Assembly (NCBI GenBank): GCA_965206125.1 | Contig: CBDBIN010000041.1 | Location: forward strand, 155,674-219,673 | DNA length: 64,000 bases | DNA from: Terriglobia bacterium | GTDB taxonomy: Bacteria; Acidobacteriota; Terriglobia; 20CM-2-55-15 | Direction of reading: 5' to 3' | Shown: positions 12,883 to 53,110 of the stretch, piece after piece | How the letters are laid out: every line of letters starts with the position of its first letter | Position numbering within the stretch: the first letter of the stretch is position 1 | Position numbers and translations under genes: made by a program | Notes under the pieces: model-generated | What the model was told of the DNA's origin: nothing | The model's database searches: none | What the model saw: the letters and a program-made list of their open reading frames with translations, nothing else

Positions 12883-12907
12883 GGCATTTCAACAGGGACT
12901 TCTAACC

Positions 12908-21821: not shown

Positions 21822-21894
<73 letters not shown>

Positions 21895-27500: not shown

Positions 27501-27526
27501 TTGCCAGCGATTGCTCAGACGGGGAG

Positions 27527-27637
27527 TCAGCCACGGATTACACGGATTTAACGGATTGACAGAGTTCCTTTCGGACGGGCAGTCCGAACATAACTTCCTC
27601 TTCCTTCTATCCGTTAAATCCGTGCAATCCGTGGCTC
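27527..27637. promoter_or_regulatory. Long palindrome/operator-like element upstream of polX: 29-nt arms (27/29 match) each made of three ACGGATT direct repeats at 9-bp spacing, with a 51-nt loop containing a nested hairpin
   Basis: Left arm cagCCACGGATTaCACGGATTTAACGGATt. Right arm is its reverse complement (aATCCGTTAAATCCGTGcAATCCGTGGctc). The loop has TTCGGACgggcAGTCCGAA. The element lies between the terminator and the polX start at 27667. Confidence 0.6.
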
Positions 27638-27666
27638 TCTTCGTCCGTGTTACGATCAGCCACAGG

Positions 27667-29424: not shown

Positions 29425-29486
29425 CCGAGACCAAGCGGTAGCGACGGGGTCCGGGAACCCGGTCACTACGGTTCCCGGTTCTGTCG
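29425..29486. repeat. Copy of the dispersed REP-like element (core ...CAAGCGGTAGCGACGGGGT plus hairpin CCGGGAACC-cggtcactac-GGTTCCCGG-TTCTG)
   Basis: Shares the AGCGGTAGCGACGGGG core and the GGGAACCCGGTCACTACNGTTCCCGGTTCTG hairpin with 39100-39660 and 62849-62883. Intergenic between polX and queG. Confidence 0.6.
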
Positions 29487-29509: not shown

Positions 29510-30532
29510 ATGCACGCAGAACTGATCAAGGAAGAGGCACGCCGCCGCGGCTTTGATCTCGCCGGCGTCGCGCCGATTGCGCCCACGCCCGAGGCCGACT
29601 TCTACACGGAATGGCTCGGCCGCGGATACGCCGGAGAGATGCGGTACCTCGAACGCCGGGTCGAGGAACGACTCGACCCGGGGAAGATCCTGCCAGGCGC
29701 GCGGTCGGCCATCGTCTGTTCGCTGAACTACCACTCCGACCGGCCCCTCACCGGTTTTGATCCCGAACGCGCCTGGGTGTCTCGCTACGCCTGGGGGGAG
29801 GATTACCATCGCGTTCTCAAGGACAAGCTCGATGGGTTGGCCGGATGGATTGAGGATGAGTCCGGCGCCGGCACCCGAACCTACGTGGATACCGGCCCGC
29901 TGATCGAGCGCGTCCTCGCCCGATACGCCGGTGTGGGCTGGTTCGGGAAGAACACCTGTATCATCGACGAAAGGATCGGTTCCTGGACCTTCCTGGGGTG
30001 CATCCTGACGGATCTATCGCTGAAGGCCGACCGTCCGGCCCCCGATCGTTGTGGGACCTGCACGGCGTGCATCGACGCGTGTCCGACCGATGCCATCGTC
30101 GAGCCGTACGTGCTCGACAGCCGCAAGTGTATTTCCTACTTGACGATCGAGCTACGAGGGGAGATCCCGGTCCCCCTGCGACCCGGCGTCGGCCATCACC
30201 TTTTCGGATGCGACATCTGTCAGGACGTTTGCCCCTGGAACCGGAAAGCGCCAGTCGGGAGGGAGACCACCTTGGAAGCGCAGCCGGAACTGTGGTGGCC
30301 GGACCTGGAAGAACTGCTGGCACTCGACGACGACGGTTGGCGGCAGAGGATTCGGGGGACCGCCCTCAAGCGCGCGAAGGTTCAGGGCCTGGTACGGAAC
30401 CTGATGGTCGTTGCCGGAAACTCGGGCATCCGCCGGCTTTGCACCAAACTCGAACGGTTTCTCGAGCACTCCAACGCCGCGGTCCGTTCGCACGCCAGGT
30501 GGGCAATCGACCGACTCACCGACGCCGAGTAG
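29510..30532 (+). CDS. queG: Epoxyqueuosine reductase QueG (4Fe-4S, cobalamin-type)
   Basis: CGTCTACIDACPTDAI and CDICQDVCPWN ferredoxin-like cysteine clusters, plus conserved family blocks (YAWGEDYH, VDTGPLIERVLA, GWFGKNTC). Confidence 0.85.
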   Translation: MHAELIKEEARRRGFDLAGVAPIAPTPEADFYTEWLGRGYAGEMRYLERRVEERLDPGKILPGARSAIVCSLNYHSDRPLTGFDPERAWVSRYAWGEDYHRVLKDKLDGLAGWIEDESGAGTRTYVDTGPLIERVLARYAGVGWFGKNTCIIDERIGSWTFLGCILTDLSLKADRPAPDRCGTCTACIDACPTDAIVEPYVLDSRKCISYLTIELRGEIPVPLRPGVGHHLFGCDICQDVCPWNRKAPVGRETTLEAQPELWWPDLEELLALDDDGWRQRIRGTALKRAKVQGLVRNLMVVAGNSGIRRLCTKLERFLEHSNAAVRSHARWAIDRLTDAE

Positions 30533-30605
30533 GTCGGTCTCGCTTCCTCATTGCGCTGGCACTTTCGGGTCGCGGTCCGCCGAACCTCGGATAGAATCGC
30601 CCCGA

Positions 30606-32318
30606 ATGCGTCTCTTCCTCATTGCTGCCGTTCCGGTCGCGTTGCTGCTGTATGGACATGCACTCGCAGCTCCGTACTACCTGGATGATTTCGTCGTTCT
30701 CGAGAGCGCATCGACACTGCCGGCGCTGCTCTCGCCACGTTCCCTTGCTTATGCGACGTTCTTTCTGAGCGCCCAAACGATCGACCTCTTCGCAGGCATT
30801 TTCTGCTGGGACACGACCTTCTACTTCAGGCTGGGGAACCTGATTATCCATGTCCTAACAGCGACGCTCGTCGTGGGGCTCGTGTCAGCGTTGACGAAGC
30901 GACATGCACCGGGCTTTGCCGCCGGGGCGCTGTTCCTCGTCCATCCGATCGTGAGTCAGCCGGTCATGTACATCAGCCAGCGCTTCGAATCGCTCGCGAC
31001 GTTGTTCATGGTCGCTTCGTTGACCGCGTATGTCCATTTCCGCAACCGTGGAAGTACCGCGTGGCTGGCTGTGACGGGTGTGTGCGCGGTGGCGGCGGTG
31101 CTGTCGAAGGAGACCGCGGTCGTGCTCCCTCTGTGGATCTTGCTGGCCGAAGTCGTCTTCTTCCGGTCGGGCGCCTGGGACCGGCGCTACCTGTATGCAG
31201 CGCCGGCCGTGGCCCTGCTTGCCCTACCCGGATGGTGGGCATTCAGGGGTTCGGCCGAAACGTTGACGTCCGTGCCTTGGGACCAGTACATCGTGTCCCA
31301 GGGCAGCGTTCTGTCGAAATACCTTCAGCTTTCACTCTATCCCGCCCGCCAGTTTCTCCACTACGGCCCTGGCGCTGTCCCCGATTCGATCTGGGTGAAC
31401 CTGGCAGGGTGGATCCTCGTACTGGGGGTGTTGGCACTGGGCGCCGTCCTGCTCCGCAGGCAGAGGATTATCGGGTTCGGTATCCTGACGGCATTCGTCA
31501 TGCTGCTGCCTGTGACCTTGCTGCCTTTGCCCGATCCGATCTTTGAACACCGTATCTACCCTGCGTTCGTCGGACTGGCGATCGCCGCCGCCGGCCTCTT
31601 CGGGTTGCACGCGCGGAAGCTGACCGTTGTCCTGACCGTCCTCGTCCTGGCGACCTACGGAGTTCGGACTTTCAACCGGGCTGCGGAATGGAACAACGAG
31701 CTGGCGTTCTTCGAGGCACACCGGACAGCGTTTCCGGAGGATTCGCGCATGCTGTCCAATCTGGCGGTCCGGTATCGGGTCCGCGGACATATCCGACGCG
31801 CAATGGAAACGCTCGAGGAGGCACGCCGGCATGAGGATCTGCTGAACCCCTACTATTCCACCGACGGCAGGCTCAACGTCGCTTTGAACATCGCTGCGGT
31901 TTCGTTGACCTTGGGGGACGTCGAAAGGGCGGAGGACGAAATCCGCCGGGCGCTTGCCATCGATCCGAATTCATCGCGGGTCCGGCAGATGGAGGGCGCG
32001 TTCTATGTGAGGATCGGCGAACCCCAAAGGGCGGCCCTCGCTTACGAGAGGCTGCTCGAAATCGCACCCAATTCCCTCGAAGGATGGACTGAAGTACGGG
32101 ATGTGTACCTGGCTATTGGAGACCAGGCCCGAGCGGATCGTGCGGGAACGAGAGTCGCCGAGCTCAGTCCGGTGCCCAGTGGGCGGGATCGTGCGGGGCC
32201 GGTCTCCGGCGCCAATCGAACCGCTTTGATCTTCGGGTTACTGGCCTTCGTCCTGGGTGTTGTTGCTGTGGGGGGGGGTCGGCCTGGACCGTATTCCGCC
32301 GCATCAAGGACGGACTAG
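30606..32318 (+). CDS. TMTC/PMT-like multi-pass membrane protein with C-terminal TPR repeats (paralog A)
   Basis: N-terminal ~11 TM helices (MRLFLIAAVPVALLLYGHALAAPYYLDD...HPIVSQPVMYISQRFESLATLFMVAS), then TPR repeats. A G9 homopolymer lies at 32270-32278 in the last codons. The true start is at 30606, not the track's 30411. Confidence 0.6.
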   Translation: MRLFLIAAVPVALLLYGHALAAPYYLDDFVVLESASTLPALLSPRSLAYATFFLSAQTIDLFAGIFCWDTTFYFRLGNLIIHVLTATLVVGLVSALTKRHAPGFAAGALFLVHPIVSQPVMYISQRFESLATLFMVASLTAYVHFRNRGSTAWLAVTGVCAVAAVLSKETAVVLPLWILLAEVVFFRSGAWDRRYLYAAPAVALLALPGWWAFRGSAETLTSVPWDQYIVSQGSVLSKYLQLSLYPARQFLHYGPGAVPDSIWVNLAGWILVLGVLALGAVLLRRQRIIGFGILTAFVMLLPVTLLPLPDPIFEHRIYPAFVGLAIAAAGLFGLHARKLTVVLTVLVLATYGVRTFNRAAEWNNELAFFEAHRTAFPEDSRMLSNLAVRYRVRGHIRRAMETLEEARRHEDLLNPYYSTDGRLNVALNIAAVSLTLGDVERAEDEIRRALAIDPNSSRVRQMEGAFYVRIGEPQRAALAYERLLEIAPNSLEGWTEVRDVYLAIGDQARADRAGTRVAELSPVPSGRDRAGPVSGANRTALIFGLLAFVLGVVAVGGGRPGPYSAASRTD

Positions 32319-32352
32319 ATTAGCCTCGGCGAGTCGATCCTGAGAGGTTCCG

Positions 32353-33716
32353 TCAATAAGTGTGTAAATAGACATCAGGCGGCTTTCTCCTCGGTGACTT
32401 GGTTGACTGGAACTCCATTGACATATTGGGCGCCTTGGTAGACATCCTTCATCAAGTGCGGAGCCTTCAAACGGCGAAATCTTTTCTCAGCGACCAGCAG
32501 CATCTTCCAGATGACAGCCCGTGAGTTGGCCACTTTCTTGAACCTTCGAGCGGCATCGGTTCGCAGTCGCAGAGCAGAGAAGGGAGACTCCACTGGATTG
32601 GTAGTCCGCAGATGTTGCCACTGCTGTTTGGGATAGTTGTAAAACGTCACCATCCGATCCCAGTCCTGGTCGATCAAATCAGCCGCTGCCTCCAGTCCTC
32701 TCTTGCCACACCAATGTTGGAATCGTCCTTTGACTTGCTCGGCTTCCTGCCGTGTTTCTGCATAAGGGATCTGCCGCAACACCAACAACGCCGCTTTGTG
32801 CCGACCCTTGGGGATCTTAGCCAGCAAGTTGACGATGCGATGATTCCAGCATCTCTGCTCGTCGGCTTCTGGGAAAACGTTGCGCAACGCTCCCCAGATC
32901 CCCAGATGCCCGTCAGCCATCACCAGTCTCGGTGGGTTCATCCCCCGCTCTTTGAGATCCCTCAGCACTTCGGACCAGCTCTGGGTCGATTCTCGATAAC
33001 CACTACTGACCGACACCACCACTTTAGTGCCATCACTTAAAGCGGCGATCACTACCAGGATCACGGCCTTTTCCTTCTCCAGCCCTGCTTTGATGTACAC
33101 ACCGTCTGCCCACAGATACACCACTTCCAGATCGTCCAGCCGACGGCTTTGCCAGGCCTCCATTTCTCCCTGCCACTTCTCCTTCAACCGGGCTACGGTG
33201 CTGGGGGACAGCGGCGCTTCTTCCCCTAAAAGCCCTCTTAAGGCCAGATCGAAATCCCCCTCGGCCAGACCATGCAAATAGAGTTCTGGAATCAAGTCTC
33301 GTACCTCTTGCGTCCGCTTGGCAAACAGCGGCAAGACCCGGCTCTCAAAACGCTCTTCCAGATCCCGCACTCGGGGACGCCGCAGCTTGATCGTTCCGCA
33401 ACTCAGCGTCAGTCGCCGCTCCTTACCGTAGCCGTTGCGATAGCCACCGGGCGCGTCCACTTCTCGGCGACGCTCATTCTTTCTTCGTCCCAGCAGCTGT
33501 GTCACTTCATCCTCCAACAGTTCCTGTACGTAAAACTGGATCTGCTCTCGCACCCACTCTTCCAGCTGTTCAAAGCAGACTCTTGACTCCACACTTCGAT
33601 CAATGTTCTTCTTGCTCATGGCGGTGTGACTCCTTCCTTTCGGGCTCTTCCGCCCGGGTTTTTATTTCACCCGGAAGGATAATCACCGCCTATGCTATTT
33701 ACACACCTTTTGAGGG
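32353..33716 (-). mobile_element. Intact IS256-family insertion sequence (about 1.36 kb) between the two TMTC-like paralogs
   Basis: Imperfect terminal IRs: AAGTGTGTAAATAG at about 32357-32374, with its inverse CTATTTACACACCTT at about 33695-33712. Full-length transposase inside. Confidence 0.8.
32375..33619 (-). CDS. IS256-family (Mutator-like) transposase, full length (414 aa)
   Basis: Conserved blocks DLEVVYLWADGVYIKAG, VIAALSDGTKVVVSV, QRCWNHRIVNLLAKIP. N-terminal HTH-like region. Confidence 0.9.
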   Translation of the reverse strand: MSKKNIDRSVESRVCFEQLEEWVREQIQFYVQELLEDEVTQLLGRRKNERRREVDAPGGYRNGYGKERRLTLSCGTIKLRRPRVRDLEERFESRVLPLFAKRTQEVRDLIPELYLHGLAEGDFDLALRGLLGEEAPLSPSTVARLKEKWQGEMEAWQSRRLDDLEVVYLWADGVYIKAGLEKEKAVILVVIAALSDGTKVVVSVSSGYRESTQSWSEVLRDLKERGMNPPRLVMADGHLGIWGALRNVFPEADEQRCWNHRIVNLLAKIPKGRHKAALLVLRQIPYAETRQEAEQVKGRFQHWCGKRGLEAAADLIDQDWDRMVTFYNYPKQQWQHLRTTNPVESPFSALRLRTDAARRFKKVANSRAVIWKMLLVAEKRFRRLKAPHLMKDVYQGAQYVNGVPVNQVTEEKAA

Positions 33717-34110
33717 TAGCTCGATCCTGAACCGTGTTGGTCTTTTCTACCTTTACCAGTTTGCGCTCCACCCGGAACATGAAGCGGAAGATCATCTCTT
33801 TGTGCTTGTCGTCGATATCGACGAATTGCACGCCCACGCGTGGATAACTCAGCCACCGTACGACCGGATAGACGACGGGCATCCCGGTGTCGGGCAAAAC
33901 CAGAACCGCCGGTCCCAGCATCTGGCCTTTGTAGAAGCGATCGTAGTGCTGCACCGCCATGAACCGGACGCCTCCGGCACCGAGTTCGTCGGCAACGGGA
34001 TCGATGTTGTCACCCTCGAGACTGAACAGGAGGTAGACCGGGTCGCTCGCAACCACCGGAAGCCGGAATGCTTCCCGCTGCTTGCTGTAATCTAGTGCTT
34101 CCTGCTCCAT
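33667..34110 (-). CDS. PilZ-domain-like protein (putative c-di-GMP binding); C-terminal codons run into the IS256 right end
   Basis: QREAFRLPV (RxxxR-like) and DELGAGGVRF (DxSxGG-like) motifs. The stop at 33667 lies inside the IS-derived sequence. Confidence 0.4.
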   Translation of the reverse strand: MEQEALDYSKQREAFRLPVVASDPVYLLFSLEGDNIDPVADELGAGGVRFMAVQHYDRFYKGQMLGPAVLVLPDTGMPVVYPVVRWLSYPRVGVQFVDIDDKHKEMIFRFMFRVERKLVKVEKTNTVQDRATLKRCVNSIGGDYPSG

Positions 34111-34184: not shown

Positions 34185-35896
34185 GTGCGTTTATTCCTCA
34201 TTATCGCCGTTCCGCTCTCCCTGGTCATGTACGCCCACGGGTTGCAGGCGCCCTTCTATCTTGATGATTCAACAGTCATTACGACGGCCAACACGTTTGG
34301 CCTCGCGACCCGGCCCCTCGGCTACCTCTCTTTTATCTCAGCAGTCTGGCTGCGGAGATTTTTGGTGGGCTGCTTCCCTGGCTGGGCCCAATGTACTACC
34401 GACTGGGCAACGTTCTGGTTCACGTGGCGGCCGCGATGGCTGTTTTTGCGCTCGTTCGCGAACTGACCGGGAGGCACCGCGCCGCGTTCGCGTCCGGGCT
34501 CCTCTTCCTGGTGCACCCCGTCCTGAGCCAGCCGGTGATGTATATCTCGCAGCGGTTCGAATCGCTTGCGACACTGTTCATGGTCGCTTCGGGGGCCACC
34601 TACGTCCGCTTCCGTCGGACCGGAACGCGGCCATGGCTCGTTGCCGTGTGCGGTTTTGGCCTGGCGGCGGCCCTGACCAAGGAAACCGCGATGGTCCTGC
34701 CGGCCTGGATTCTCCTGATCGAATTGACCTTCTTCAGGGGCTGGCGGTGGGATCGTCGGTTCCTGTACGCGATACCCGCAAGTTTGGTCCTCTTGGTGCC
34801 GGCCTGGAGTGCCTTCCAGCGTTCGGCCACCGCGCTGACCTCGGTCTCCTGGCCCCTTTACCTGGCCTCCCAGCCGGGCGTTCTGCTCAAGTACCTGAGC
34901 CTTTCGGTCTTCCCCTACGAACAGTATCTCCACTATGACGCCCAGGTCGTGGAGGCGTTCTCGTGGCCCCTGGTCGCAGAATGGCTCCTGATTGTTGCAA
35001 TTCTGGCTACAGGCCTGACCCTCATTCGACGATATCCATACATAGGGTTCGGTATCGTGACGTTCTTCGTCCTGTTGCTGCCCGTGACGTTGCTACCGCT
35101 GCCCGACCTGATCTTCGAGCACCGTATCTATCCGGGTTTTGTGGGGCTTGCGGTCATGTTCGGCAGCCTGTCCGTCCGGCCCCTCGGCAAGCCGGCGATG
35201 ATTGCCGTATTGCTGCTGCTGACTGTATATGGTGTGCGAACGCACCAGCGGGCAGGCGAGTGGAACGACGACGTCGCGTTTTTCGAGGCCCACAGGGCCC
35301 GGTTTCCGGCGGACCCAATCGTGCTCTCGGCGCTGGGCGTCCGGTACCAGGCGCGGGGCGAAGTGTCCCGGGGTCTGGAGGCGTTCGCCGAAGCGCGCCG
35401 GAACGAGGAAAGGTTCAACCCGTACTACTCGGAGGTCGGCCGGATTAACATCGCGCTGAACATCATCACGGCGTCCATGGCGATGCGGGACTTCGAACGC
35501 GCCGGCTCGGAGCTGGAGATCGCACTCGCGCTCGATCCGGACAGGTGGCCGGTTCGCCAGATGGAAGGCGGCTACTACCTGACGATCGGCGAGTTCGAAA
35601 AGGCGGTCGTCGCCTTTCGGCGGCTGACCGAACTGGAACCGGCCCGGCCTGTGGGGTGGATCGGTCTGCGGAGCGCCTACAACGAGCTCGGTCGAGCCGA
35701 CGAGGCGAACCGAGCGGCGGAACGGCTTGAGGAGCTGAACAGCGCGGCCGAGGGGGCGCAAGGAAGGTCGTGGGCGATTCCTCCCCGGTACAGGATGCAC
35801 GTGATCTTCGCTGCGCTCCTGACTTTCCTCGGCGGGGCAGTCCTCGCGGGGCGGTGGACTTGGATCGAATTAAGGAACAGGTGGTCTAATGGCTGA
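34185..35896 (+). pseudogene. TMTC/PMT-like membrane TPR protein, paralog B, with a frameshift near 34340-34360
   Basis: ORF 34185-34466 (MRLFLIIAVPLSLVMYAHGLQAPFYLDD...) and ORF 34391-35896 (…YYRLGNVLVHV…VMYISQRFESLATLFMVAS…TPR) are each collinear with paralog A, in different frames. A T5 run at about 34353-34358 is a candidate slip site. Confidence 0.55.
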
Positions 35897-38041: not shown

Positions 38042-38249
38042 GTCGCCCCGCGATCCTCAGCTAGAATTCCTAGAGTTACTGACAATAACCTAACAAACTT
38101 GTTGACCTCCAGATGACCCGTCTACCGAATTGGTGGACACGAACAATCTGCGCTTGTTTGTTTTCAATCGGTTAGGTAGTGGCACCCCGCGTGCACTTAT
38201 GTCGATCTAACGGATTGGAAGTGGTTCCATTTGGAAGGAGCTGAGGTTA

Positions 38250-39046
38250 TGAAAGCGGTCTACAAGCTGAGAAAACTGCTGAGAGGGACAAGAGGCGTCG
38301 CAACCTCTCTGATTGAAGCCACCGCCACCGTCGCCATCGGCGCCGTCTTGGCCGGGGTTGCGGTCGGCAGTGCGATCAATTCCATCAACGACTCGAAGAT
38401 TCAGGCCGCCATCGCGGACGTCCAGGTCATGGGCCAGGCCATCATCACGTTCTACAAGGACAATGCCTTCTTCCCGTTGTACAAGGATGGAAACGAAACT
38501 GGACCGGGCGATGATTTCTTCTTCAACCTGGTGTCCCGAAACGGTACGTACCCGACGGACACGACCGGGGACACCTGGAAGATTGCCGGTGCCGGCACCG
38601 GCTACACCGAGAACAACGCCGCTGGGCTTTTCGGCCATGACTTGCTCGCCACGGACGACGCCATCGAAGGGCACCTGGTCAACAATGCCATCGCCGCCAC
38701 CTTTGATGCCCAGACAGGCCTGCTGTCGGCGGGGGCCGGCTATCCGATCCGGGGGGATTATCCGGGTGACGCGCAACGCGGCTGGGCCGGACCTTACGCC
38801 GGCGTTTTGACGAAGGCGGATCCCTGGGGCAGCAAATACATTGTCAACGTCCGGATGCTGCATACCGGAAACTTTATCGGCCAGGATGCCGAAGAAATTC
38901 CGAATGCCGATCCGAACCTCAATTTCCCGTTGGTTGGCGTGGTCGTGCTCTCCGCAGGACCCGACCGCGCGATCGACACGCCCGCCAACCAGCTGGGCGA
39001 CGTGTTCACCGTCAACAACGACGACATCGTCTTCAGGATCAAGTAA
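38250..39046 (+). CDS. GspG-like (T2SS/T4P) pseudopilin with non-canonical prepilin N-terminus
   Basis: C-terminal GspG signature DPWGSKYIVNV...VVLSAGPDRAIDT...DDIVFRI. N-terminal RG|VATSLIE hydrophobic segment with Glu at +7 rather than +5. RBS GGAAGGAG lies 7 nt upstream of ATG 38250. Confidence 0.6.
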
Positions 39047-39099
39047 ACAAAGAGTTTTAAGCCAGACAGTCAATGTTCAGCCCGGGCGCCAGCCCGGGC

Positions 39100-39660
39100 T
39101 TTTTTTTCTGGTGGGAGGGAACTCGGTCACTACAGTTCCTGGTTCTGTCGGGGCAGCAGTGTCCGAACAGAACCCAGAGCGGTAGCGACGGGGTCGGCAG
39201 GCTCGACTGTTGCGGAATGAGTGTCGGTCAGAACCCAGAGCGGTAGCGACGGGGTGATCCCCGCTCCAAAACCCCAGAGCGGTAGCGACGGGTTCGGAAC
39301 CCGGTCACTACAGTTCCCGGTTCTGTTGGGGCAGCTGTGTCCGAACAGAATCCAGAGCGGCATCGATGGGGTCGGCAGGCTCGACTGTTGCGGAATGAGT
39401 GTCGGTCAGAACCCAGAGCGGTAGCGACGGGGTGATCCCCGCTCCAAAACCCCAGAGCGGTAGCGACGGGTTCGGAACCCGGTCACTACAGTTCCCGGTT
39501 CTGTTGGGGCAGCTGTGTCCGAACAGAATCCAGAGCGGCAGCGATGGGGTCGGCAGGCTCGACTGTTGCGGAATGAGTTTCGGTCAGAACCCAGAGCGGT
39601 AGCGACGGGTTCGGAACCCGGTCACTACCGTTCCCGGTTCTGTTAGCTTTCGGTTGATCT
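39100..39660. repeat. Tandem array: about 2.6 copies of a ~178-bp composite unit built from the REP-like core (CAGAAYCCAGAGCGGYAKCGAYGGGG, at least 8 copies) and the hairpin module (GGAACCCGGTCACTACNGTTCCCGGTTCTG, 4 copies)
   Basis: Direct inspection shows 39221-39398 and 39399-39576 are near-identical (identical 67-aa ORFs in the track). Spacers between the cores repeat identically, so this is unit duplication. Confidence 0.85.
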
Positions 39661-41118: not shown

Positions 41119-42267
41119 TCAGCGCAATAGTCTCAGGAGCGAAAGTGAACCCCGTGGCCTGGGGATCCTCCGTTTTCCTCGCTCATGAACTTTGTCATCT
41201 TGATCCGGATGTTGCCACCCTCCTGTGGGGTTTCGCCGAGATTGGTGTCGGGAATCCGGGTCAAGGGTGACTGTATGCGGATCGGAAAAGGTCTGTCCCG
41301 TGGTAGACCCGATTCCGACGACGGTCGGTCCCGCAAAGTTCAGGGTTTCCCCGCTGGCTGCGCGGTCCGACGAATCGTCGAAGACTGTCTGGCTGCCAAT
41401 CTCCAACTTCTCATAGAAGGCGGTCACAGTGTATTCCGCCTTGAAACTGGTGATCGTGATGTCGCTCGATCCATGGTTTTGGATCACAAACTCTACCTCG
41501 CTGCCCGACGACAGTGAGACGCCGCTATCGTTGACGTAAACGAGTCCGGGATCGATTGCGAGACTCCGGTTTCCGAACGGAATGTCAGCGAATGTGTAGG
41601 CTCCGTCGTCATCGGTGTCGGTCTCCTGCTCGACGAAGACTCCATCCTGGGGGTGGTTGATCTTTACGTTTACTCCCACCAGGGGATTCCTTCCAGCATC
41701 CCGTACGTACCCGACAACAGTGGACAACATCTCCGTCCTGTAGATCTCCGTCGTGAGATCGTCTCCTCCTCCAACCGCCGCATCCGGTCCGTAACTGAAA
41801 ACTCGGGCCCGGTACTCCTGCCCTGTCGTCGTGCTCGTAGCTGTTTCGACAACGTACTGGATCGGGTTGCCCCACGCATCGAGATCGATCTGATCGAAGA
41901 ATCGGAGTGGTCCTACGTCGAGGTACGGGCCGGTCCATCCGCGGCCCAGCTTTAGGGAGGTGTCAAAGGTATAGCCGGGCTGAGACCCTGCGATCCAGAG
42001 ATCCTCCAGGGAAGAGGGCAGAGAGCCCATGCCAGCCAGCAGGCCAAAATCCATCCGTGCTTCCTTGGTTACGATACGCGGATTGCCTATCAACGCCCTC
42101 TTCAGCATGGAAAGCTTGGCGATCGTCTCCTGTTCGCGGGAGAAGTTCACTTGCTGATCGACGAGTGTTCCTGTTCCGACCACCAGCAGAGCGGTGATCG
42201 CGACGGAAACGATGGCTTCTAAAAGAGTAAAACCCCGGCTGCACCGATAATAATCCGTGATCGTCAT
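41119..42267 (-). CDS. Prepilin-type N-terminal cleavage/methylation domain protein with a GspG-like segment (DAWGNPIQY) and a CarbopepD_reg-like domain
   Basis: RG|FTLLEAIVSVAITALLVV (Glu+5) class-III signal. VGYVRDAGRNPLVGVNVKI resembles a carboxypeptidase regulatory domain. Confidence 0.55.
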   Translation of the reverse strand: MTITDYYRCSRGFTLLEAIVSVAITALLVVGTGTLVDQQVNFSREQETIAKLSMLKRALIGNPRIVTKEARMDFGLLAGMGSLPSSLEDLWIAGSQPGYTFDTSLKLGRGWTGPYLDVGPLRFFDQIDLDAWGNPIQYVVETATSTTTGQEYRARVFSYGPDAAVGGGDDLTTEIYRTEMLSTVVGYVRDAGRNPLVGVNVKINHPQDGVFVEQETDTDDDGAYTFADIPFGNRSLAIDPGLVYVNDSGVSLSSGSEVEFVIQNHGSSDITITSFKAEYTVTAFYEKLEIGSQTVFDDSSDRAASGETLNFAGPTVVGIGSTTGQTFSDPHTVTLDPDSRHQSRRNPTGGWQHPDQDDKVHERGKRRIPRPRGSLSLLRLLR

Positions 42268-42477
42268 CACTCCGATATTATGGCTTTGGGACCTAGTGGT
42301 TGCAACCATTTGTGGCGTCGTAAGGGACGGTGTGGCGCCGTCGGAACTTGCGGACCGGTTCGTGCTTGGCACGTCACGACCCGGGTTCCTTAAGGTTGGA
42401 CAAATTCTTCCGGAAGCAGAGCGGACCCTCCGGGGAGGGTCCGTAAGGAACGAGCAGAACAGGTGTTGGGCCGCGGG

Positions 42478-43071
42478 TCACCGGATGCGGTGGACGATGT
42501 CGTCGCCGCCGACCGCGAACGCGGCGACGTTGGGGTCCTGGTCGTATTCCGTGTCGAGCGTCTTGTCGGGTCCCGCCGAGATCACGAAAACGGCTTCCTC
42601 CTGGCCAGGCTTCAGGAAAGTCGCGTTCAGGTAATACTTGGTCCCCCAGGGGTCCGTGGAAATATCGTTCATGTAGGCGCCGTTCCAGGCCCGAAGACCG
42701 ATCGTGGTCAGCGCGAGCGAGTTCTCGTTGATGACCGCCGACATGTCGCCGTTGGTGCCTGTAGTCCAGGCGTCATCCGTGCTGTTGTCCGTCGGAACGT
42801 CGCCGTCGGTCTCGAGGGCGTCGTACGCATCCCCGTTCGGGATGTCGGACTGGTCGACGTAGATCGGCCAGATTCGAGTATCCGTATTGAAAGAGATGAT
42901 CGCCGCCGCGATGTTTCGTACGTCGTTTCGCGCCGTGTTGATACGGGCGCGGTCGATGTAGCTGGTGATCATCGGCGTGATGATCGACGCCAGGATCGCA
43001 ATAATCGCAAGCACGACGACGAGTTCCATCAAGCTCCATCCGCCGTTCGCTCTATCTCTTATTGATCGCAT
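42478..43071 (-). CDS. GspG-like major pseudopilin/type IV pilin
   Basis: GG|WSLMELVVVLAIIAILASI (Glu+5), and C-terminal DPWGTKYYLN...VISAGPDKTLDT...DDIVHRI. Confidence 0.7.
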   Translation of the reverse strand: MRSIRDRANGGWSLMELVVVLAIIAILASIITPMITSYIDRARINTARNDVRNIAAAIISFNTDTRIWPIYVDQSDIPNGDAYDALETDGDVPTDNSTDDAWTTGTNGDMSAVINENSLALTTIGLRAWNGAYMNDISTDPWGTKYYLNATFLKPGQEEAVFVISAGPDKTLDTEYDQDPNVAAFAVGGDDIVHRIR

Positions 43072-43311
43072 GGTCTGCTCCTCTTTGAAACGTCTCCCTT
43101 GCCCACTGAAGCACATGAGGTACCATGTTCCCAAAAGGTGTTATCTCATTGAATTCAGACGGATCCGGTCCAGGTATCCCTCATCTCGGGCTACGGAAAT
43201 GGTAGACAATGACCCAGTCCACTCTCGAAACTTGTTGAATATTGACAGTAATTGAAGCAAATTCACGTTTAATCCCTTGATTTTCGGTTAGGTAGCAGGC
43301 TTGCTATCTAT

Positions 43312-45141
43312 TTGAGAAGTATGTCCGAGACTGCACCCGGAAAGGCGACGACGAACCGCCGTGTCGTCGTCGTCATGTTCAGCGACATCGTCGGTTTCAC
43401 CGAGTACTGCGACAAGCACGGTGAAGAGGAAGGCGTAGAGCTCGTCGCTCGCCATGAGGACATGGTCTTCCCGATTATCGAAGCCCAGAAGGGGACGGTC
43501 GTCAAGACCATCGGGGACGCCGTCATGGCCTACTTCGAGGATGCCCCGCACGCCGGGATGGCCGCCAAGGAGATGATGCAGGCCGTCGCGCGCGACAACG
43601 CGGACAGGACCTCCGACCAGCAAATGCAGCTCCGGGTCGCCTTCCACCTCGGTCCTGTCATCGTCCGGAACAACGATCTTTTCGGGGACACCGTCAACCA
43701 GACCTCCCGTATGGCGGGAGTCGGCAAGCCCGGACAGATCCTGATCTCGAAGACGATGATCGATGTCTTGAGCGAGGATTCCAGATTCATCTGCCGTTTT
43801 GTCGGGAAGGCGGACTTCCACGGGAAGACGGGCACCATCGAGCTTTTCGAGATCCTGACCGAGGACCTGGAGCTCACCGAAAAGAAGAAGTCCCGGATCG
43901 TGTCCGACAGCGCGGTCAAGGACGCCCCGGCCGAGGGTCAGGGGCGACTGATTGGGGATAAGTACTTCATAGAAAAGCTGATCGGGGAAGGGGCCTACGG
44001 CAAGGTGTTCAAGGCGCGGCATGCCGAGACCAAGGAAACGGTCGCGATCAAGATGCTGCCCGAGGATGCCTACGCTTTCTACAGCAGGGAAGCCCAGGTG
44101 CTGCGCCAGCTCCAGCCTTGTCCCTACATCATGGCGATCCTCGACGCCCTGGTGGATGAGGATGGTCTCTGCATTGTGATGCCCTACATCGAGCACGGTA
44201 GCCTGCAGACCTACATGAACACGCTGCACGGCGATCCGCTCGAGCCGGGGCAGACGATTTCCCTGATGGAGGAGCTCCTGCTGGGCATCGCGCATGCCCA
44301 TTCGCGCGACGTGATACATCGGGACGTGAAGCCGCAGAACATCCTGCTCGCGAACGGTACCGACGGGATTCTGTCCGACTTCGGCATCGCCCACGCCATG
44401 GAGTCGACCGGGCGCACGAGCACGATGACCCAAGGGACCTCCGGCTATATCGCTCCGGAAGTCACATCAGGACGGTTCGACAGCACGATCGACGTGTATT
44501 CGGCCGGCGTCGTGCTGTACAAGATGCTCGGCGGCGAGTTTCCCGTGGACATGGAGACGCTGCCCCCCTATACGCACCCCGATTTCGTCAAGATCATCGC
44601 CCGCGCCATAGCCGAGCGTCCCAAGCGTTACTCGACCCCCGAGGACATGCTCGGGGATCTCCACGGAATGGCGTCGAAGGTGCTCAGCTCGACGATCGAG
44701 TCGATCGCTCAGTCGGGCGAGGAAAGGGTGCTGGTGGCGGTCGAAGACTCCAGCTGGTCGATCATGGAACCGGCCCTGGAGGCCAGGAAGTTCATCAACA
44801 TCCGCTGCGGGCTCGACAATATCCTCAAGTATGTCCACTGGAAGTATGTCCACTGGCACATTCCCGCCGTAACCGTCCTGGATGCCGCGCTGTTGAACTC
44901 GTCGGGGATCGATGTGAACGAACGCGTCGCCGCATGCAGCGCCCTCGGGACCCGCGTGATCGTGATCAACTGCGGCGCGATCGAGGAAGCCCAGGACCTG
45001 ATCAAGAACGGCGCCGCCGACTGCACCGCCGCCATCGGCGCCCCGCAGTCTCTCGAAGCCCTCACGATGTCCATCGACACCATGATTACCCAGATCCAGC
45101 TCGGGTCCGGGAAGTCGTGGTGGAAACGCATCCTCTCTTAA
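43312..45141 (+). CDS. Fusion protein: class III adenylate/guanylate cyclase domain + Ser/Thr protein kinase domain + C-terminal uncharacterized domain
   Basis: Cyclase block VVVVMFSDIVGFTEYCDKHG...TIGDAVMAYF...FHLGPVIV...GDTVNQTSRM. Kinase block IGEGAYGKVFKA...VAIKM...HRDVKPQNILL...DFGIAH...GTSGYIAPE. Confidence 0.75.
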   Translation: MRSMSETAPGKATTNRRVVVVMFSDIVGFTEYCDKHGEEEGVELVARHEDMVFPIIEAQKGTVVKTIGDAVMAYFEDAPHAGMAAKEMMQAVARDNADRTSDQQMQLRVAFHLGPVIVRNNDLFGDTVNQTSRMAGVGKPGQILISKTMIDVLSEDSRFICRFVGKADFHGKTGTIELFEILTEDLELTEKKKSRIVSDSAVKDAPAEGQGRLIGDKYFIEKLIGEGAYGKVFKARHAETKETVAIKMLPEDAYAFYSREAQVLRQLQPCPYIMAILDALVDEDGLCIVMPYIEHGSLQTYMNTLHGDPLEPGQTISLMEELLLGIAHAHSRDVIHRDVKPQNILLANGTDGILSDFGIAHAMESTGRTSTMTQGTSGYIAPEVTSGRFDSTIDVYSAGVVLYKMLGGEFPVDMETLPPYTHPDFVKIIARAIAERPKRYSTPEDMLGDLHGMASKVLSSTIESIAQSGEERVLVAVEDSSWSIMEPALEARKFINIRCGLDNILKYVHWKYVHWHIPAVTVLDAALLNSSGIDVNERVAACSALGTRVIVINCGAIEEAQDLIKNGAADCTAAIGAPQSLEALTMSIDTMITQIQLGSGKSWWKRILS

Positions 45142-45142
45142 G

Positions 45143-45180
45143 CCAGAACCGAGAGCGGTAGCGACCGGGTAATTCCGGGC
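45143..45180. repeat. REP-like core copy (CCAGAACCGAGAGCGGTAGCGACCGGGT) starting 2 nt after the cyclase-kinase stop
   Basis: Matches the core at 39160-39640. Confidence 0.5.
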
Positions 45181-45354
45181 CAAAGGGCGACCCGTAGGCA
45201 TGTAGTGGGGGCCCGGCCAGACGTTAGAAACTAAAGGAATGGCAGGCGTGGGGGGACCGTGCCCGTTTGAGTTCCCGCTATCATGGGCTAGAAACCCAGC
45301 CAGGGCACTCTCCGAGTCGGGCGAGCGTAGGCGCGGTGGGCCCGACGCTAAGGG

Positions 45355-45437
45355 AAGAACCGAGAGCGGTAGCGACCGGGTGACTCCCAAGCGACCAGTT
45401 CTCATTTCCGACCCCGTCGCTACTGCTCCGGGTTCTG
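45355..45437. repeat. REP-like element as an inverted pair (GAACCGAGAGCGGTAGCGACCGGGTGA ... GACCCCGTCGCTACTGCTCCGGGTTCTGA), predicted long hairpin
   Basis: The reverse complement of the right arm is about 85% identical to the left arm. Both match the dispersed core. Confidence 0.5.
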
Positions 45438-45733
45438 ACTGCGGGGCAAGCAAGGGACACGTCAAGATTCCCGATCTACAGTGACATCAGCTCGGCGAAT
45501 TCTGATGTGCCCGCGGCAGCAGACCTTCAGGGTGACGGCGACGCCCCGACCACGGGAGCCGGATGGGCTCTGACATCGTCGATCGACCTCGATGAATACC
45601 TCAACACGGAAAAGCTGGGCCTAGCGCGACCGGCGCTCGGGGCAAGTCTTTCGGTGATTTCGGCCCAGGCTGTGAGCCCGCTTTTCTCGCCGGTTTCCGG
45701 CGCTGCAGCAGACTACTGGCGAGAAATGCGGGC

Positions 45734-46324
45734 TTAACCGACGAGCATGGCCGCTACCGCCCCGGCACTTAACCAGGGGCCCAAGGCCTGAGGGCCGACG
45801 GCTCCGCCCCAGCGTTTCAGCAGGACGGCTCCGGCAACTCCGAACACCCCGGTGAAGACAAGGGCCGCGATGATCCCCGGCCATCCCAGGAACGCGCCTA
45901 TCATCGCGGACAGTTTCCAGTCTCCCCCACCGACTTCCTTGCTGCGGGCCGCTTCGACCACCGTTGCGGCGATCAGGACGCCGCCGCCGAAAAGGAGGCC
46001 GACAAGGGACAATCCGAACCCGGAAGGAAGTACCCACCAGCCGAGGACGAGGCCCGCCAGAGTGCCGGGAACCGTGATGAGCAGAGGAATGTGTTGGGTG
46101 CGAAGGTCGATCAAGGTCACCGCCAGCAGGGCGAGGGTGAACGATCCGTAGACTGCCACGATAGGCCAGTCGAACCCGTACCGGAGACCGGTTGCGGGCA
46201 GGAGCAACGCCATCCCCCCGACCGCGATAGACCGTTCGGCATTGTGTGCTTGTCGGTGGCGCCTGCCAACCAGAACGTAGGTCGCCAACCCAAGAACTGC
46301 ACCCGTGATGAAGAGCGAAATTAC
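45734..46324 (-). CDS. A24-family prepilin peptidase (short form, no N-terminal Zn/methyltransferase domain evident)
   Basis: TM-rich. Conserved blocks ...LIDLRTQHIP..., GGGDWKL, LGPWLSAGAV. The upstream part of the track ORF is low-complexity antisense overlap. Start assigned at about 46324 (GTG). Confidence 0.6.
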   Translation of the reverse strand, partial: VISLFITGAVLGLATYVLVGRRHRQAHNAERSIAVGGMALLLPATGLRYGFDWPIVAVYGSFTLALLAVTLIDLRTQHIPLLITVPGTLAGLVLGWWVLPSGFGLSLVGLLFGGGVLIAATVVEAARSKEVGGGDWKLSAMIGAFLGWPGIIAALVFTGVFGVAGAVLLKRWGGAVGPQALGPWLSAGAVAAMLVG

Positions 46325-46337
46325 GTGGACAGCGGCA

Positions 46338-47616
46338 TTACCCGCCACTCGAAAGTTCCCGGATCTTCTGTTCGACACTTTCGACGAATTGGGGATACTG
46401 GCTGGAACCGAGTTCGAGGAAGCGGTTGAAATGATCGATCGCCTCGCGGACCTCGCCTTGCTCTTCGTACAGCCAACCGAGGTTGTAGTGGGCTGCGGCG
46501 CTCGCCGGGTTGGCCTGGAGAGCCTCGAGATACAGGATCTTGGCCCGCTCCGTCTCACCCTCGTTCCTGTAATGGTTGGCGAGGTTCGTGATGGCATCGG
46601 CGTTCCGCGGGTTTATGGCGATCGCCCGCTCGTATTCCCGGACGGCTTCCGACTCCTGACCCGCTTCCAGGAGGGCCGTTCCCAGGTTGTTGTGGGCCAG
46701 GTCGTAGTTGGGGTTGATCACGATCGCGAGCCGGAACTCTTCGATCGCAGCGGCATTGTTCGACATCGCCATGTAGAGCAATCCGAGGTTGTTCCTGGCG
46801 GAGGCGTTCCGAGGATCGGCATCGAGAACCTGGATGTAATAGGGCAGAGCTTCTAAGTAGCGACCGGCCTGGTGATAGAGCAGGGCCGAATCGAACGGAT
46901 CGCTGACCGCAGGCTCGACCCGTGGATCGCCTGCCGCCGGCGGATTCGGCGATGATGCGGGATCATCCCCGGCGAGTGTTGTCTGGATCGCGATCTCATC
47001 CTCGCCCGGCGTCGCGGACCCGGGTCCGGTATCTACCGCACCCTCGGGGTCCAGATCCTGGGCAGCGGGCTCGTCTGGTTCTATTGCTAGCGACGGCTCC
47101 GCATCAGGAGCAGGCACGGGTGGCGGCGTTGCGTTGGACGTTTCGGCTTGCTCCATCGTCGGTGGTTCGGGCTCCTGGGCCCCAGAGGCCGGGCCTGGCT
47201 CTTGCTCCCCGGCGGCCACCGGATCGCCCTCTACGACTTCGCCGGTCCCCGCCTCCCCACCGTCCGGGCTCGCCTCTTCTGGCCCGCCCTCTTCGGGTCC
47301 GTCCTCAGGGGGCAACAGGCCATCGTCGTCCGGGAACAGCGGGTCGGTTCCGGGAGCTGGGTCGATCTCGAGCAACTGAGCCTGCTCGGCCATGGGTGAG
47401 GAGGCGGTCCGGTTGATCCAGTAGAGCACCCCCGAGGCAATAATCGCGCCGAGTACAACGACCGGTACGACATAGGTCAGCAGGATCTTCTTTGTCTTGT
47501 TTCCTTTGGCCTGTTCTGCGAAACCGAAGCTCTTGAGGTAAGCCGGCGCCTTCTGAGGCCGCGGACCCGCCCGCCAGCTTCTTTGCCTTGCGCAGTGCGT
47601 CGAGGATGGAGCTCAT
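46338..47616 (-). CDS. GspB/MshN-like protein: N-terminal MSSILDALRKAKK motif, TM helix, Pro/Glu-rich linker, C-terminal TPR repeats; apparent +1 frameshift between the N-terminal 30 codons and the rest
   Basis: ATG at 47616 encodes MSSILDALRKAKKLAGG. The TPR ORF frame is open upstream to that point with no start of its own (…KAPAYLKSFGFAEQAKGNKTKKILLTYVVPVVVLGAIIASGVLYWINR). Confidence 0.5.
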
Positions 47617-47640
47617 GAGCCTCTCTGGTCTGATCTCAGT

Positions 47641-47916
47641 CTAGCAGCCTGTGGCAGAACCCTGTGGGGCCGCGCGCACGGGTCTTCGGGTCGCGGGCGC
47701 GAAGAGAGGAGGGCACGATGCGGTTTCATCGTAACCGACGAGGGACAAAGCCCGAGGCCCGAACCCCCATGCGCCCGAAGGGTTACGGCGAAACGGCACC
47801 GGATTCGTTGTCGTCGACTCCTCACAATGAAAGGGCATTGTCTCGTCCTCGTCTCCTAGAATCCGGTGCCGTTTGGCCGTAACGCGACCCCACAGGGTTC
47901 TGCCACAGGCTGCTAG
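47641..47916. repeat. MITE-like/long palindromic element (276 bp): perfect 29-bp terminal inverted repeats CTAGCAGCCTGTGGCAGAACCCTGTGGGG, plus nested inner inverted repeats (GGTTACGGCGAAACGGCACCGGATTC / GAATCCGGTGCCGTTTGGCCGTAAC)
   Basis: Seen directly. Bases 47641-47669 are the exact reverse complement of 47888-47916. The inner IR pair is 47779-47806 versus 47858-47885. The left half carries a 109-bp insertion between outer and inner repeats. Confidence 0.75.
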
Positions 47917-48872
47917 CCGCCTACTCCGTTCACGATTGCCACCAGCGCCAGCGCGAGCAGGATAGACAGCCCCACGACGAGGGCCGTCCGCCGCATCCCG
48001 AACAGGGCCTTGGACCACGTCGACAAACCGGTCCCGGACCGGTACTTCTTCAACTGAAGGTTGTGGATCGCCTGCTCGGCCACACCCCCGTCGATCGTGC
48101 CGGCGCCGGTCGCCATCCCGGCCAGGAGTGACCGGTCCGCGATGAGGTTGATCAGCCGGGGCACACCACCGGAGTACTCGCATATCTCCTTAACGGCGGA
48201 AGGCGCGAACGACACCCTCGCCGTGCTGCCACCCGCCACCGAAAGGCGGTGCCGGAGGTAGTCGCCGACTTCCGATGGCGACAGCGCCGAAAGCTCGCAC
48301 TTGATCGAGACCCTCTGGAAGAGCTGCCGGAGCTCGGGCTGGGACAGGAGGTCCAGCAGGTTGAGCTGCCCGACGAGTACGATTTGGAGCAGCTTGTCCT
48401 TGTTGGTTTCCAGGTTTGACAGGATCCGGATCTGCTCGAGCGTTGCCATCGGAATGTTCTGCGCCTCGTCGATCAAGACGACCGCTCGTTGCCCCGCCTC
48501 GAGGGTCTTCAGGAGAAAGTCGTTCAGCGTGTTGATGAGATCCTGCTTCGTCACCGCCTCGCCGTTCTTCCTGCGAGGGGGCTTGACGTCGAAGTCTTCC
48601 AGGATTGCTTTGATCAGGTCGGTTTCCGACAGGAACGGGTTGAGCAGGAGCGCGGTGCATACGCCCTTGTCGATCGTGTCCAGCACGGTCCGGCACAGAG
48701 TGGTCTTGCCCGTTCCGATGTCCCCGTACACGATCATGAAGCCTTCCCGCCTCTGAATGCCGTACTGGAGCAGTTCGAAAGCCCGCGTGTGGCCTTCGCT
48801 CCGGTAGAAGTACTTCGGATCGGGTGTCAGGCTGAACGGTGGTTCGATCAGACCGTAGTGTTCTTCATACAT
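47913..48872 (-). CDS. GspA/ExeA/MshM-family AAA ATPase
   Basis: Walker A GDIGTGKTTL, ExeA-like blocks (LLLNPFLSETDL, VVLIDEAQNIPMATLEQIRILSNLE), C-terminal TM helix. Confidence 0.75.
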   Translation of the reverse strand: MYEEHYGLIEPPFSLTPDPKYFYRSEGHTRAFELLQYGIQRREGFMIVYGDIGTGKTTLCRTVLDTIDKGVCTALLLNPFLSETDLIKAILEDFDVKPPRRKNGEAVTKQDLINTLNDFLLKTLEAGQRAVVLIDEAQNIPMATLEQIRILSNLETNKDKLLQIVLVGQLNLLDLLSQPELRQLFQRVSIKCELSALSPSEVGDYLRHRLSVAGGSTARVSFAPSAVKEICEYSGGVPRLINLIADRSLLAGMATGAGTIDGGVAEQAIHNLQLKKYRSGTGLSTWSKALFGMRRTALVVGLSILLALALVAIVNGVGG

Positions 48873-48918
48873 GACGCGTCGAATCGTCCTCCTGGTCCTT
48901 GCTGGATTGCCCGAGGGG

Positions 48919-53106: not shown

Positions 53107-53110
53107 CGGT

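Follow-up and report, generated by a model that had tools for sequence, protein, structure and literature searches.

Hairpin repeats of an acidobacterial contig as probable REP-type elements of a class 3-type, RayT-linked system

A 64-kb stretch of a Terriglobia bacterium contig (GenBank CBDBIN010000041.1), herein called the window, carries a family of short hairpin repeats that is dispersed over four loci and amplified into a tandem array at one of them (39118-39642). These repeats are probably repetitive extragenic palindromic (REP)-type elements of the class 3-type, REPtron-like kind, which are linked to a gene for a RayT-like nuclease. The unit has a defined anatomy with a covarying stem, is widely distributed in Acidobacteria, and is concentrated around genes whose product is modelled with the IS200/IS605 TnpA fold. 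Its presence differs between the window and a near-identical relative.

The repeat unit and its fold

An earlier note on this DNA described a 26-nt core and a hairpin module (30 nt) as parts of a dispersed REP-type hairpin repeat family with a tandem cluster. With up to three mismatches, the core has eight matches in the window versus 0.00 expected from 100 shuffles, and the module has six versus none in shuffles. Read on the opposite strand, the module is recognisable as a variant of the core, and one degenerate 24-mer, AGAACCSRGARCNGTAGYGACSGG, matches both (12 exact occurrences in the window, 0 expected). Hence, core and module are a single unit in opposite orientations. By profile and by eye, with degenerate copies included, the window contains 19 units of approximately 25 nt, namely two at 29425-29483, 12 at 39118-39642, three at 45144-45437, and two at 62678-62881. 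The matches of core and module are all located where the note had placed them (29.4, 39.1 to 39.6, 45.1, 45.4, 62.7, and 62.85 kb). All four loci lie between open reading frames (ORFs) or over an ORF 3' end, downstream of ORFs, as the note had stated for its copies. Convergent ORFs flank three of the four, the exception being the 29425-29483 locus, which occupies the spacer of the codirectional genes PolX and QueG.

The unit was defined from an alignment of 264 units, taken from 117 genome loci and the window. Its consensus is [G/T]T-CAGAA-CCGGGAGC-GGTA-GCGACCGG-[G/A]T, in which the majority of positions exceed 90% conservation. On its 5' side, one unit has a single-stranded foot (CAGAA); an 8-bp stem follows, capped by an NGTA loop that a C-G pair closes. 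The foot varies as C[AG]G[AT]A overall and reads CAGA or CGGA, that is CnGA, in most units. The centre of the stem is a near-invariant tandem G.A/A.G mismatch, which belongs to an equally near-invariant apical module, GAGC-GGTA-GCGA. The outer four pairs vary with compensation (CCGG/CCGG, CCCG/CGGG, CCGC/GCGG, and CAGG/CCTG). Some subfamilies replace the central tandem by Watson-Crick pairs, for example CCGCTTGC-GGTA-GCAAGCGG and CCACCCGC-GGTA-GCGGGTGG, and in some the arms extend to at least 40 nt.

Covariation was determined on 76 distinct stems that were picked without any pairing requirement except the closing pair. Compensatory double-sided changes fill 61 cells, compared with 23.4 ± 3.1 after shuffling, and none of 500 shuffles reaches 61; the covariation score is 0.211 versus 0.081 shuffled and stays at or below 0.09 when the partners are slid. 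The window itself holds two arm types that differ at five positions. The A units pair C7:G22 and G11:C18, and the B units pair G7:C22 and A11:T18. Each type thus keeps its own pairs and loses complementarity to the other, which identifies the within-unit hairpin as the structure under selection. The hairpin put forward earlier, GGGAACC-cggtcactac-GGTTCCC, has to be revised accordingly: it is an alternative fold of the window's B units only, and the conserved, covarying hairpin lies in another register, CC-S-G-G-A-R-C / NGTA / G-Y-G-A-C-S-GG.

Single units, folded as single-stranded DNA, adopt the predicted structure. The inverted pair at 39585-39642 reaches −19.2 kcal/mol as DNA (z −5.6) and −41 kcal/mol as RNA (z −5.5). 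For the pair at 45355-45437, whose two inverted cores had been expected to form a long hairpin, the RNA fold of −45 kcal/mol (z −4.5, none of 200 shuffles being as stable) agrees with that expectation.

A RayT-like gene linked to the units

All-against-all clustering of the 3203 ORFs of 117 loci showed no enriched transposase; it brought up only common families of paralogues, among them kinases, cyclases, and ADOP permeases. A cognate candidate emerged on inspection of the ORFs that lie between distant inverted units. It is a 157-aa ORF at 7204-7677 of a genome locus denoted L110, with a Pfam Y1_Tnp match of 24.7 bits (cutoff 23). The ORF is bracketed by units at 7120-7151 (+), 52 nt upstream, and at 7710-7736 (−), 33 nt downstream, with another inverted unit approximately 160 nt downstream. 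Its protein family comprises 1067 homologues at E ≤ 1e-5, for which the JGI name is "REP element-mobilizing transposase RayT"; in a library of 1.84 billion proteins, it has 3362 cluster representatives at E ≤ 1e-3.

The linkage was examined independently in 80 metagenome loci that were fetched by the L110-type protein alone, with units recognised solely from their structure, namely a foot with an 8-bp stem and a C-NGTA-G loop. Within 250 nt of the gene there are 4.23 units per kb, compared with 0.21 per kb farther away, a 20-fold difference, and 0 in shuffled sequence. In 35 of the 54 loci with enough flank, units occur on both sides of the gene. Upstream units are mostly in "+" orientation (54 versus 19 "−") and downstream units mostly in "−" orientation (58 versus 26 "+"), which is the arrangement of a REPtron and not that of the same-strand ends of IS200/IS605 elements. 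Of the loci missed by a sequence profile, five were inspected: in four, the foot and the GGTA loop are unchanged and the stem is a variant, and one is without an inverted repeat. The search for a cognate REP-associated tyrosine transposase (RAYT) or IS200-like Y1 gene, which the earlier note had suggested, is hence positive in related DNA, though not in the window itself.

The L110-type protein keeps the motifs N-H-V-H, W-T, and Y-x4-Q; in three alignments of homologues, TNHVHTVV, LWTE, and YVEYDQ show little or no variation. An AlphaFold2 model of the RayT-like protein (pLDDT 83, pTM 0.75) was compared with the PDB by Foldseek, and the 30 best matches are all TnpA of IS608, ISDra2, or IS200 or the Escherichia coli RAYT 4er8, with a probability of 1.0. 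A sequence-profile search of the PDB with the same protein returned nothing real (a histone at E 0.09).

Other Y1_Tnp ORFs were found with phmmer, using IS200 TnpA and E. coli RAYT sequences as queries. Those in loci L016, L035, L061, and L100 were rejected as cognate genes because each has a different repeat of its own at its flanks. In L061, the repeats at 3307-3341 and 4263-4297 (GTAGGGGCGGC...GCCGCCCC) belong to another REP family and bracket a different Y1_Tnp gene.

Range and arrangement of the family

A scan of species-representative genomes with the 24-mer matched at least 117 stretches, which is a lower bound. The motif is therefore present outside this genome, and the family is not genome-specific as had been supposed; moreover, a syntenic relative, L118, is without units. 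The 80 titles listed among the matches are those of acidobacterial metagenome-assembled genomes (MAGs), Blastocatellia being in the majority, under the names Pyrinomonadaceae, Blastocatellia, Chloracidobacterium, Blastocatellaceae, and Acidobacteriota, together with one "bacterium". For the window, an ADOP permease (952 bits) indicates acidobacterial DNA, and the best named homologue of QueG (69% identical) is labelled Terriglobia. The motif was found in five of 2.9 million viral contigs; the element is thus not mainly phage-borne. A literature search for a 12-mer of the unit returned unrelated primers only, and no paper linking REP/RAYT systems to Blastocatellia was found in the literature search.

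Over 118 loci, close pairs with the feet pointing outward ("+-") are the prevailing arrangement (79 pairs, spacers of 3 to 120 nt), next to 26 close same-orientation pairs and five close "-+" pairs; 33 loci have a single unit. The spacers inside inverted pairs show no relatedness between copies of one genome. Beyond the foot, the flanks of 40 of 81 pairs are inverted complements at 4 nt. Direct repeats of 3 to 5 nt flanking the 81 pairs number 0 to 3 versus 0.1 to 1.3 expected, meaning no target-site duplication of that length, with the qualification that a 2-bp TA duplication is indistinguishable in this comparison since TA is self-complementary. Outward pairs, single units, and same-orientation runs without duplication form the pattern of REPs, bacterial interspersed mosaic elements (BIMEs), and REP doublets forming hairpins (REPINs), and not that of a DDE-type MITE (miniature inverted-repeat transposable element). 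With units that stand alone, in same-orientation runs, and mostly as outward-foot inverted pairs, the family resembles REPINs and BIMEs.

Tandem arrays occur elsewhere in the family. One, at 6771-6960 of locus L086, has a 48-nt period of same-orientation units, and another, at 7690-8000 of L110, has a 128-nt period and lies downstream of the RayT-like gene. Amplification is thus recurrent in the family and not specific to the window. The number of tandem units next to RayT genes also varies between close relatives.

Turnover between near-identical genomes

The relative L118 is a contig of ENA ERZ25067264 and is syntenic with window positions 18.2 to 41.2 kb at 96 to 98% nucleotide identity. 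It has no units at all and lacks them at both comparable loci, the array and the PolX-QueG spacer; the other two window loci fall outside the aligned stretch. At the array locus, the flanks match L118 to the base, on the left through the terminator at 39079-39110 up to TTTTTTTTCTG, and on the right from the stop codon of the TIG-domain gene. Between them, L118 has a 128-nt spacer (18243-18371) of unrelated sequence with a classical GTAG REP, GTAGCGGCGCTCTATGAGCGCCG. The PolX-QueG spacer is unrelated sequence in L118 as well. The spacer is thus replaced rather than simply filled. As the flanks match and the spacers differ, small repeats appear to be exchanged quickly in these spacers. The window copies are recent gains, or else the relative has recently lost its own.

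Several observations accompany this comparison. With the GTAG REP of L118 and the family seen in L061, several REP families coexist in these Acidobacteria. The PolX-QueG spacer of two relatives (L118 9866-9975 and L119 4530-4870) holds a different repeat of approximately 100 nt, GACAAATGACAAGTG...GACCATTGACCATTTTGG. In L119, this repeat occurs in duplicate and is accompanied by a copied PolX 3' end, and the window keeps only GACCATTTTGG of it. The sole interior sequence common to the L118 spacer and the array is the 10-mer GTCCGAACAG, found at 39161-39170, 39339-39348, and 39517-39526 and at approximately 18353-18362 of L118; in the array, its last three bases, CAG, begin the foot of a unit. 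It may be a target-site remnant, although coincidence is a plausible explanation too (estimated at roughly 0.08).

The units at the four window loci

Tandem Repeats Finder reports the array as 39118-39609 with a period of 178, 2.8 copies, 96% matches, and no indels, so that the tandem unit of approximately 178 bp noted before is confirmed with slightly more than the 2.6 copies given then. In a repeat search, the in-register copies are 39118-39295, 39296-39473, and 39474-39651 at 100, 96, and 80%. One period is a block of four units, which are B (−), a decayed A* (+), A (+), and A' (+), the last adjoining the next B. Copy three lacks 39 nt (spacings of 178, 178, and 139), which exactly equals the distance from A to A'. 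This loss is consistent with a deletion between two same-orientation units, which suggests that recombination between such units both builds and trims the array.

The left edge of the variable segment is the intrinsic terminator at 39079-39110 (+), a 9-bp G+C-rich stem followed by a T run, that belongs to the pseudopilin-like gene 38231-39046. It is context outside the repeat family, and below threshold its Rfam matches are terminator-like sRNA models. The array begins with a slightly degenerate B-type unit (two mismatches) at 39118-39147 (−), followed by A-type units at 39168-39193 (+; CAGAACCCAGAGCGGTAGCGACGGGG) and 39229-39254 (+). The A'-type unit at 39267-39294 (+) has a degenerate foot, CAAAA, and one extra C, and it forms a compact inverted pair with the next B-type unit at 39296-39325 (−), whose reverse complement is CAGAACCGGGAACTGTAGTGACCGGGTTCC. 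The second block continues with a decayed A*-type unit at 39346-39371 (+; CAGAATCCAGAGCGGCATCGATGGGG), read by eye and in the same 178-bp phase as the A* at 39524, an A-type unit at 39407-39432 (+), and an A'-type unit at 39446-39472 (+). In the third block, a B-type unit at 39474-39503 (−) precedes a decayed A*-type unit at 39524-39549 (+), which is a core match with three mismatches, and the A-type unit at 39585-39610 (+) is followed by the last B-type unit of the array at 39613-39642 (−). These last two units form a 60-nt hairpin 17 nt past the stop codon of the TIG-domain gene on the − strand.

At the PolX-QueG spacer, the compact inverted pair 29425-29483 consists of a degenerate A unit (+, approximately 29425-29452) and a B unit (−, 29454-29483). 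The unit at 45144-45169 (+) begins 3 nt past the stop codon of the cyclase-kinase gene 43312-45141, and its CAGAACCGAGAGCGGTAGCGACCGGG is letter-identical to copies at MAG loci (e.g., L007). The inverted pair 45355-45437 is built from units at 45355-45380 (+, foot AAGAA) and 45412-45437 (−) with a 31-nt spacer. The decayed unit at 62678-62703 (+; GTTAGCGTC) shares the last 18 nt of ORF 61379-62695, its own TAG being the stop codon of that ORF; its partner across a 148-nt spacer is the B-type unit at 62852-62881 (−).

Other variable segments and mobile elements

Window positions 41165-54125, a strain-variable segment of approximately 13 kb that is replaced by approximately 1 kb in L118, contain the repeat locus at 45144-45437 together with genes for a cyclase-Ser/Thr kinase fusion, a prepilin peptidase, and a PEP-CTERM-associated ATPase. 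Just upstream of PolX, a 140-nt segment (27500-27640) that is absent from L118 has 31-nt inverted arms (27529-27559 and 27606-27636, 94% complementary) with ACGGATT-like repeats, and resembles a miniature inverted-repeat insertion of another kind. Also inserted relative to L118 is a 1.38-kb segment (32343-33721) that encodes a Mutator/IS256-family transposase at 32375-33619 (−; Pfam Transposase_mut, E 1e-57). Two paralogous TPR/PMT_2-like genes (30411-32318 and 34391-35896) are 3572 nt apart, share 74 to 76% nucleotide identity, and are paired in L118 too.

Two inverted IS30-family copies (7383-8605 and 11664-12886) are 99% identical, with a transposase scoring 292 bits to NF033563, and enclose approximately 3 kb of ORFs without a family match; the pair and the enclosed segment may be a composite transposon. 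A third, diverged copy (approximately 78% identical) lies at 54242-55447. A 276-nt element at 47641-47916 has nested inverted repeats, with outer 34-nt arms that are 97% complementary and inner 25-nt arms that are 96% complementary; the outer arms contain GGCAGAACCC...GGGTTCTGCC, which is reminiscent of the REP foot.

Competing explanations

The best surviving alternative, although itself improbable, is that the repeats are a host-selected RNA or DNA signal, such as a 3' stabiliser, a terminator, or a site for a chromosomal protein, to which the RayT linkage is secondary. All four window loci follow ORFs, and at three of them the neighbouring ORFs converge; this placement fits the explanation, as do the very stable RNA hairpins of the two inverted pairs (z −4.5 and −5.5), one of which starts 17 nt behind the stop codon of the TIG-domain gene. 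In E. coli, REPs stabilise upstream mRNA and bind IHF and gyrase (PMC2817692, PMC3479197). Against it, no Rfam family matches the units at gathering score, no U-tract follows the pairs, and the + strand gene in front of the array has its own terminator (39079-39110). Furthermore, L118 does without the units at both comparable loci, and elements of the genome loci lie in divergent spacers about as often as chance. A host signal would be a secondary use of the units, if anything, rather than a rival account of their origin.

Less probable still is that the units are the ends of autonomous insertion sequences (IS) of the IS200/IS605 type and of their miniature derivatives (PATE-like), instead of parts of a domesticated REPtron. 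The protein does have the IS200/IS605 TnpA fold, class 3 was called an intermediate between IS and REPtron, and one Solibacter genome has three close copies of the gene (PMC6006769). However, the units upstream of the gene are mostly "+" and those downstream mostly "−", as in REPtrons. The hairpins at the left and right ends of IS200/IS605 elements have the same orientation on one strand. The units also far outnumber the genes, with three RayT genes in 840 kb of motif-selected loci, and no TnpB gene stands beside the L110-type ORF in the loci inspected.

A classical MITE would be a deletion derivative of an IS, with the inverted pairs serving as terminal inverted repeats and a DDE transposase working on the double-stranded ends. 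This explanation is equally far from likely and largely refuted. It draws on the dominance of outward-foot inverted pairs with a variable interior of 3 to 150 nt, on arms of at least 40 nt in some subfamilies, and on the IS30-family and Mutator-family transposases in the window. The "MITE-like" part of the earlier description nevertheless finds no support in the DDE sense: the 81 pairs show no direct repeats of 3 nt or more above chance and have inverted complements as flanks, and single units and same-orientation runs are common. In addition, interiors differ between copies of one genome, and what the two arm types of the window preserve is the hairpin of each, not pairing between arms. Around the units of the 117 loci, enrichment is seen for no DDE transposase family, whereas a Y1/HUH gene is tightly linked. 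The ends of the IS30 copies are unrelated to the units, and these copies were rejected as the source of the repeats.

A tRNA, rRNA, or CRISPR origin, which the note had held to be incompatible with its reading, was rejected for want of a curated-model match and of a regular repeat-spacer structure: over the whole window, Rfam at gathering score and ARAGORN match solely a tRNA-Lys (21822-21894), and below threshold the units attract only generic long-hairpin or miRNA-precursor-like models. Integron attC sites (RYYYAAC ... GTTRRRY) have only AAC...GTT in common with CAGAACC / GGTTCTG, the units lie scattered between housekeeping genes, and the annotated ORFs include no integrase; attC sites and DNA-uptake sequences were dropped in view of the dispersed copies, the strong local hairpin, and the linkage to an HUH gene.

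A number of points weigh against the favoured assignment to a RayT-linked REP system. The RayT-like gene was not found in the 64-kb window or in 56 kb from relatives, the linkage of gene and units is a correlation, and nuclease activity has been demonstrated for no class 3 protein. The foot is CAGAA and not the GT[AG]G of canonical REPs, whereas the conserved GTAG of the units runs from the loop into the first position of the 3' stem. Single units as single-stranded DNA barely beat shuffles (z −0.7 to −1.7), in an energy model that gives tandem G.A pairs no credit, and pair 8:21 is A.C in 30 of 210 units, which is G.T on the opposite strand. Apart from the window and L118, where the spacer is replaced, a clean empty site defining the boundaries of insertion was not found among 280 element clusters. 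Finally, gene 3' ends are not favoured by the elements of the genome loci, which lie in 37 tandem, 26 divergent, and 9 convergent spacers, near background; these counts come from a crude longest-ORF gene caller and are not to be over-read. Any role of the units at the RNA level is at most secondary.

Proposed mechanism and significance

By analogy with E. coli TnpA-REP, the cognate class 3 HUH/Y1 nuclease of the RayT type would bind the folded, single-stranded hairpin. As that enzyme does on its own REPs, it would cut and rejoin DNA near the foot, and such events could copy or move units within the genome. The four-unit block (B, A*, A, A') would then have been duplicated in tandem, most likely through recombination or replication slippage between units, and the 39-nt deletion in the third copy may represent the reverse event. 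As a by-product, transcripts that enter inverted pairs would form very stable 3' hairpins.

A further, tentative possibility, held to be rather less likely than its opposite, is that a class 3 REP system is currently invading the strain of the window or undergoing a burst in it. It is suggested by the absence of both comparable loci from L118, one of them just amplified to 12 units, and by the letter identity of some window units with copies in Blastocatellia MAGs. Were it true, class 3 REPtrons would be active and perhaps horizontally spreading replicators, the GAGC-GGTA-GCGA module with its tandem G.A would be the recognition determinant, and the system would be the first tractable natural one in which to study class 3 as a bridge from IS200 to domesticated RAYTs.

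REP/RAYT systems have been studied mostly in Proteobacteria. The present analysis reveals no new mechanism and describes an instance of a known element type. It adds an explicit, covariation-supported model of a class 3-type hairpin (CnGA foot, covarying outer stem, tandem G.A, and GGTA loop), a linkage of gene and hairpin in most of 54 independently chosen loci, a large family size in soil Acidobacteria, with 3362 cluster representatives of the protein and a motif that occurs in at least 117 genome stretches, and a near-identical genome pair that differs in REP content. For annotation, it accounts for a conspicuous, assembly-breaking repeat (many RayT contigs are 1 to 3 kb long) that might be taken for a regulatory RNA.

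Comparison with known systems

The canonical REP, BIME, and REPIN-RAYT systems of E. coli and Pseudomonas are reportedly described in work by Nunvar (2010), Bertels and Rainey (2011), Messing (2012), and Corneloup (2021). Like these, the units are short, imperfect, extragenic palindromes in many copies, they form inverted dimers and tandem clusters that carry bits of flanking DNA, and an HUH/Y1 gene lies between inverted copies. Another common trait is a stem with a conserved irregularity that is preceded by a conserved motif; E. coli TnpA-REP processes folded single-stranded REPs and needs both a stem irregularity (a bulge) and the preceding conserved motif (PMC8266576). Apart from the foot, the difference lies in the protein, which scores 15 bits against NCBIfam REP_Tyr_transpos (cutoff 80), fails to be detected by sequence against the PDB, and has a class-1-like Y-x4-Q in place of the Y-I-x-x-N-P of canonical RAYTs.

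Closer in host range are the TIRYT genes of TIRtrons, acidobacterial tyrosine transposase genes flanked by non-GTAG inverted repeats, which were found in Koribacter, Terriglobus, Acidobacterium, and Granulicella, and some of whose repeats form moderately abundant families with dimers or clusters (Di Nocera et al. 2013, PMC3733652). The present family shares with them the phylum, the tyrosine transposase gene, and the flanking non-GTAG inverted repeats. By description, it differs from them in that theirs are long terminal inverted repeats, some with GGGGWSAS (PMC3733652).

The closest counterpart is the class 3 group of TnpA-Y1 proteins, a small set of 24 proteins from Planctomycetes, Acidobacteria, and Proteobacteria (Quentin et al. 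2018, BMC Genomics 19:475, PMC6006769). Its members are approximately 178 aa long with a conserved core of approximately 155 aa and the motifs NHVH, W[TA], and YV[VI][AENY]EQ. Their genes have at their flanks several atypical hairpins that carry a 5' CnGA foot, which were found by manual inspection and number approximately 600 copies in Solibacter usitatus; the group was judged to be nearer to REPtrons than to IS (PMC6006769). The present system departs from it in the tyrosine motif (YVEYDQ), in a CAGT variant of the foot outside CnGA, in its hosts, which are mostly Blastocatellia MAGs that were unsampled in that study, and in a far larger family size (3362 cluster representatives versus 24 proteins). 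It agrees with class 3 in the protein, with N-H-V-H, W-T, and Y-x4-Q and a RayT-like length of approximately 166 to 171 aa, as well as in a gene that is bracketed by hairpins with a CAGA/CGGA foot, in the high copy number of these hairpins elsewhere, and in acidobacterial hosts. Units and protein together match class 3 REPtron-like systems by description, that is, by foot, motifs, and host phylum rather than by hairpin sequences.

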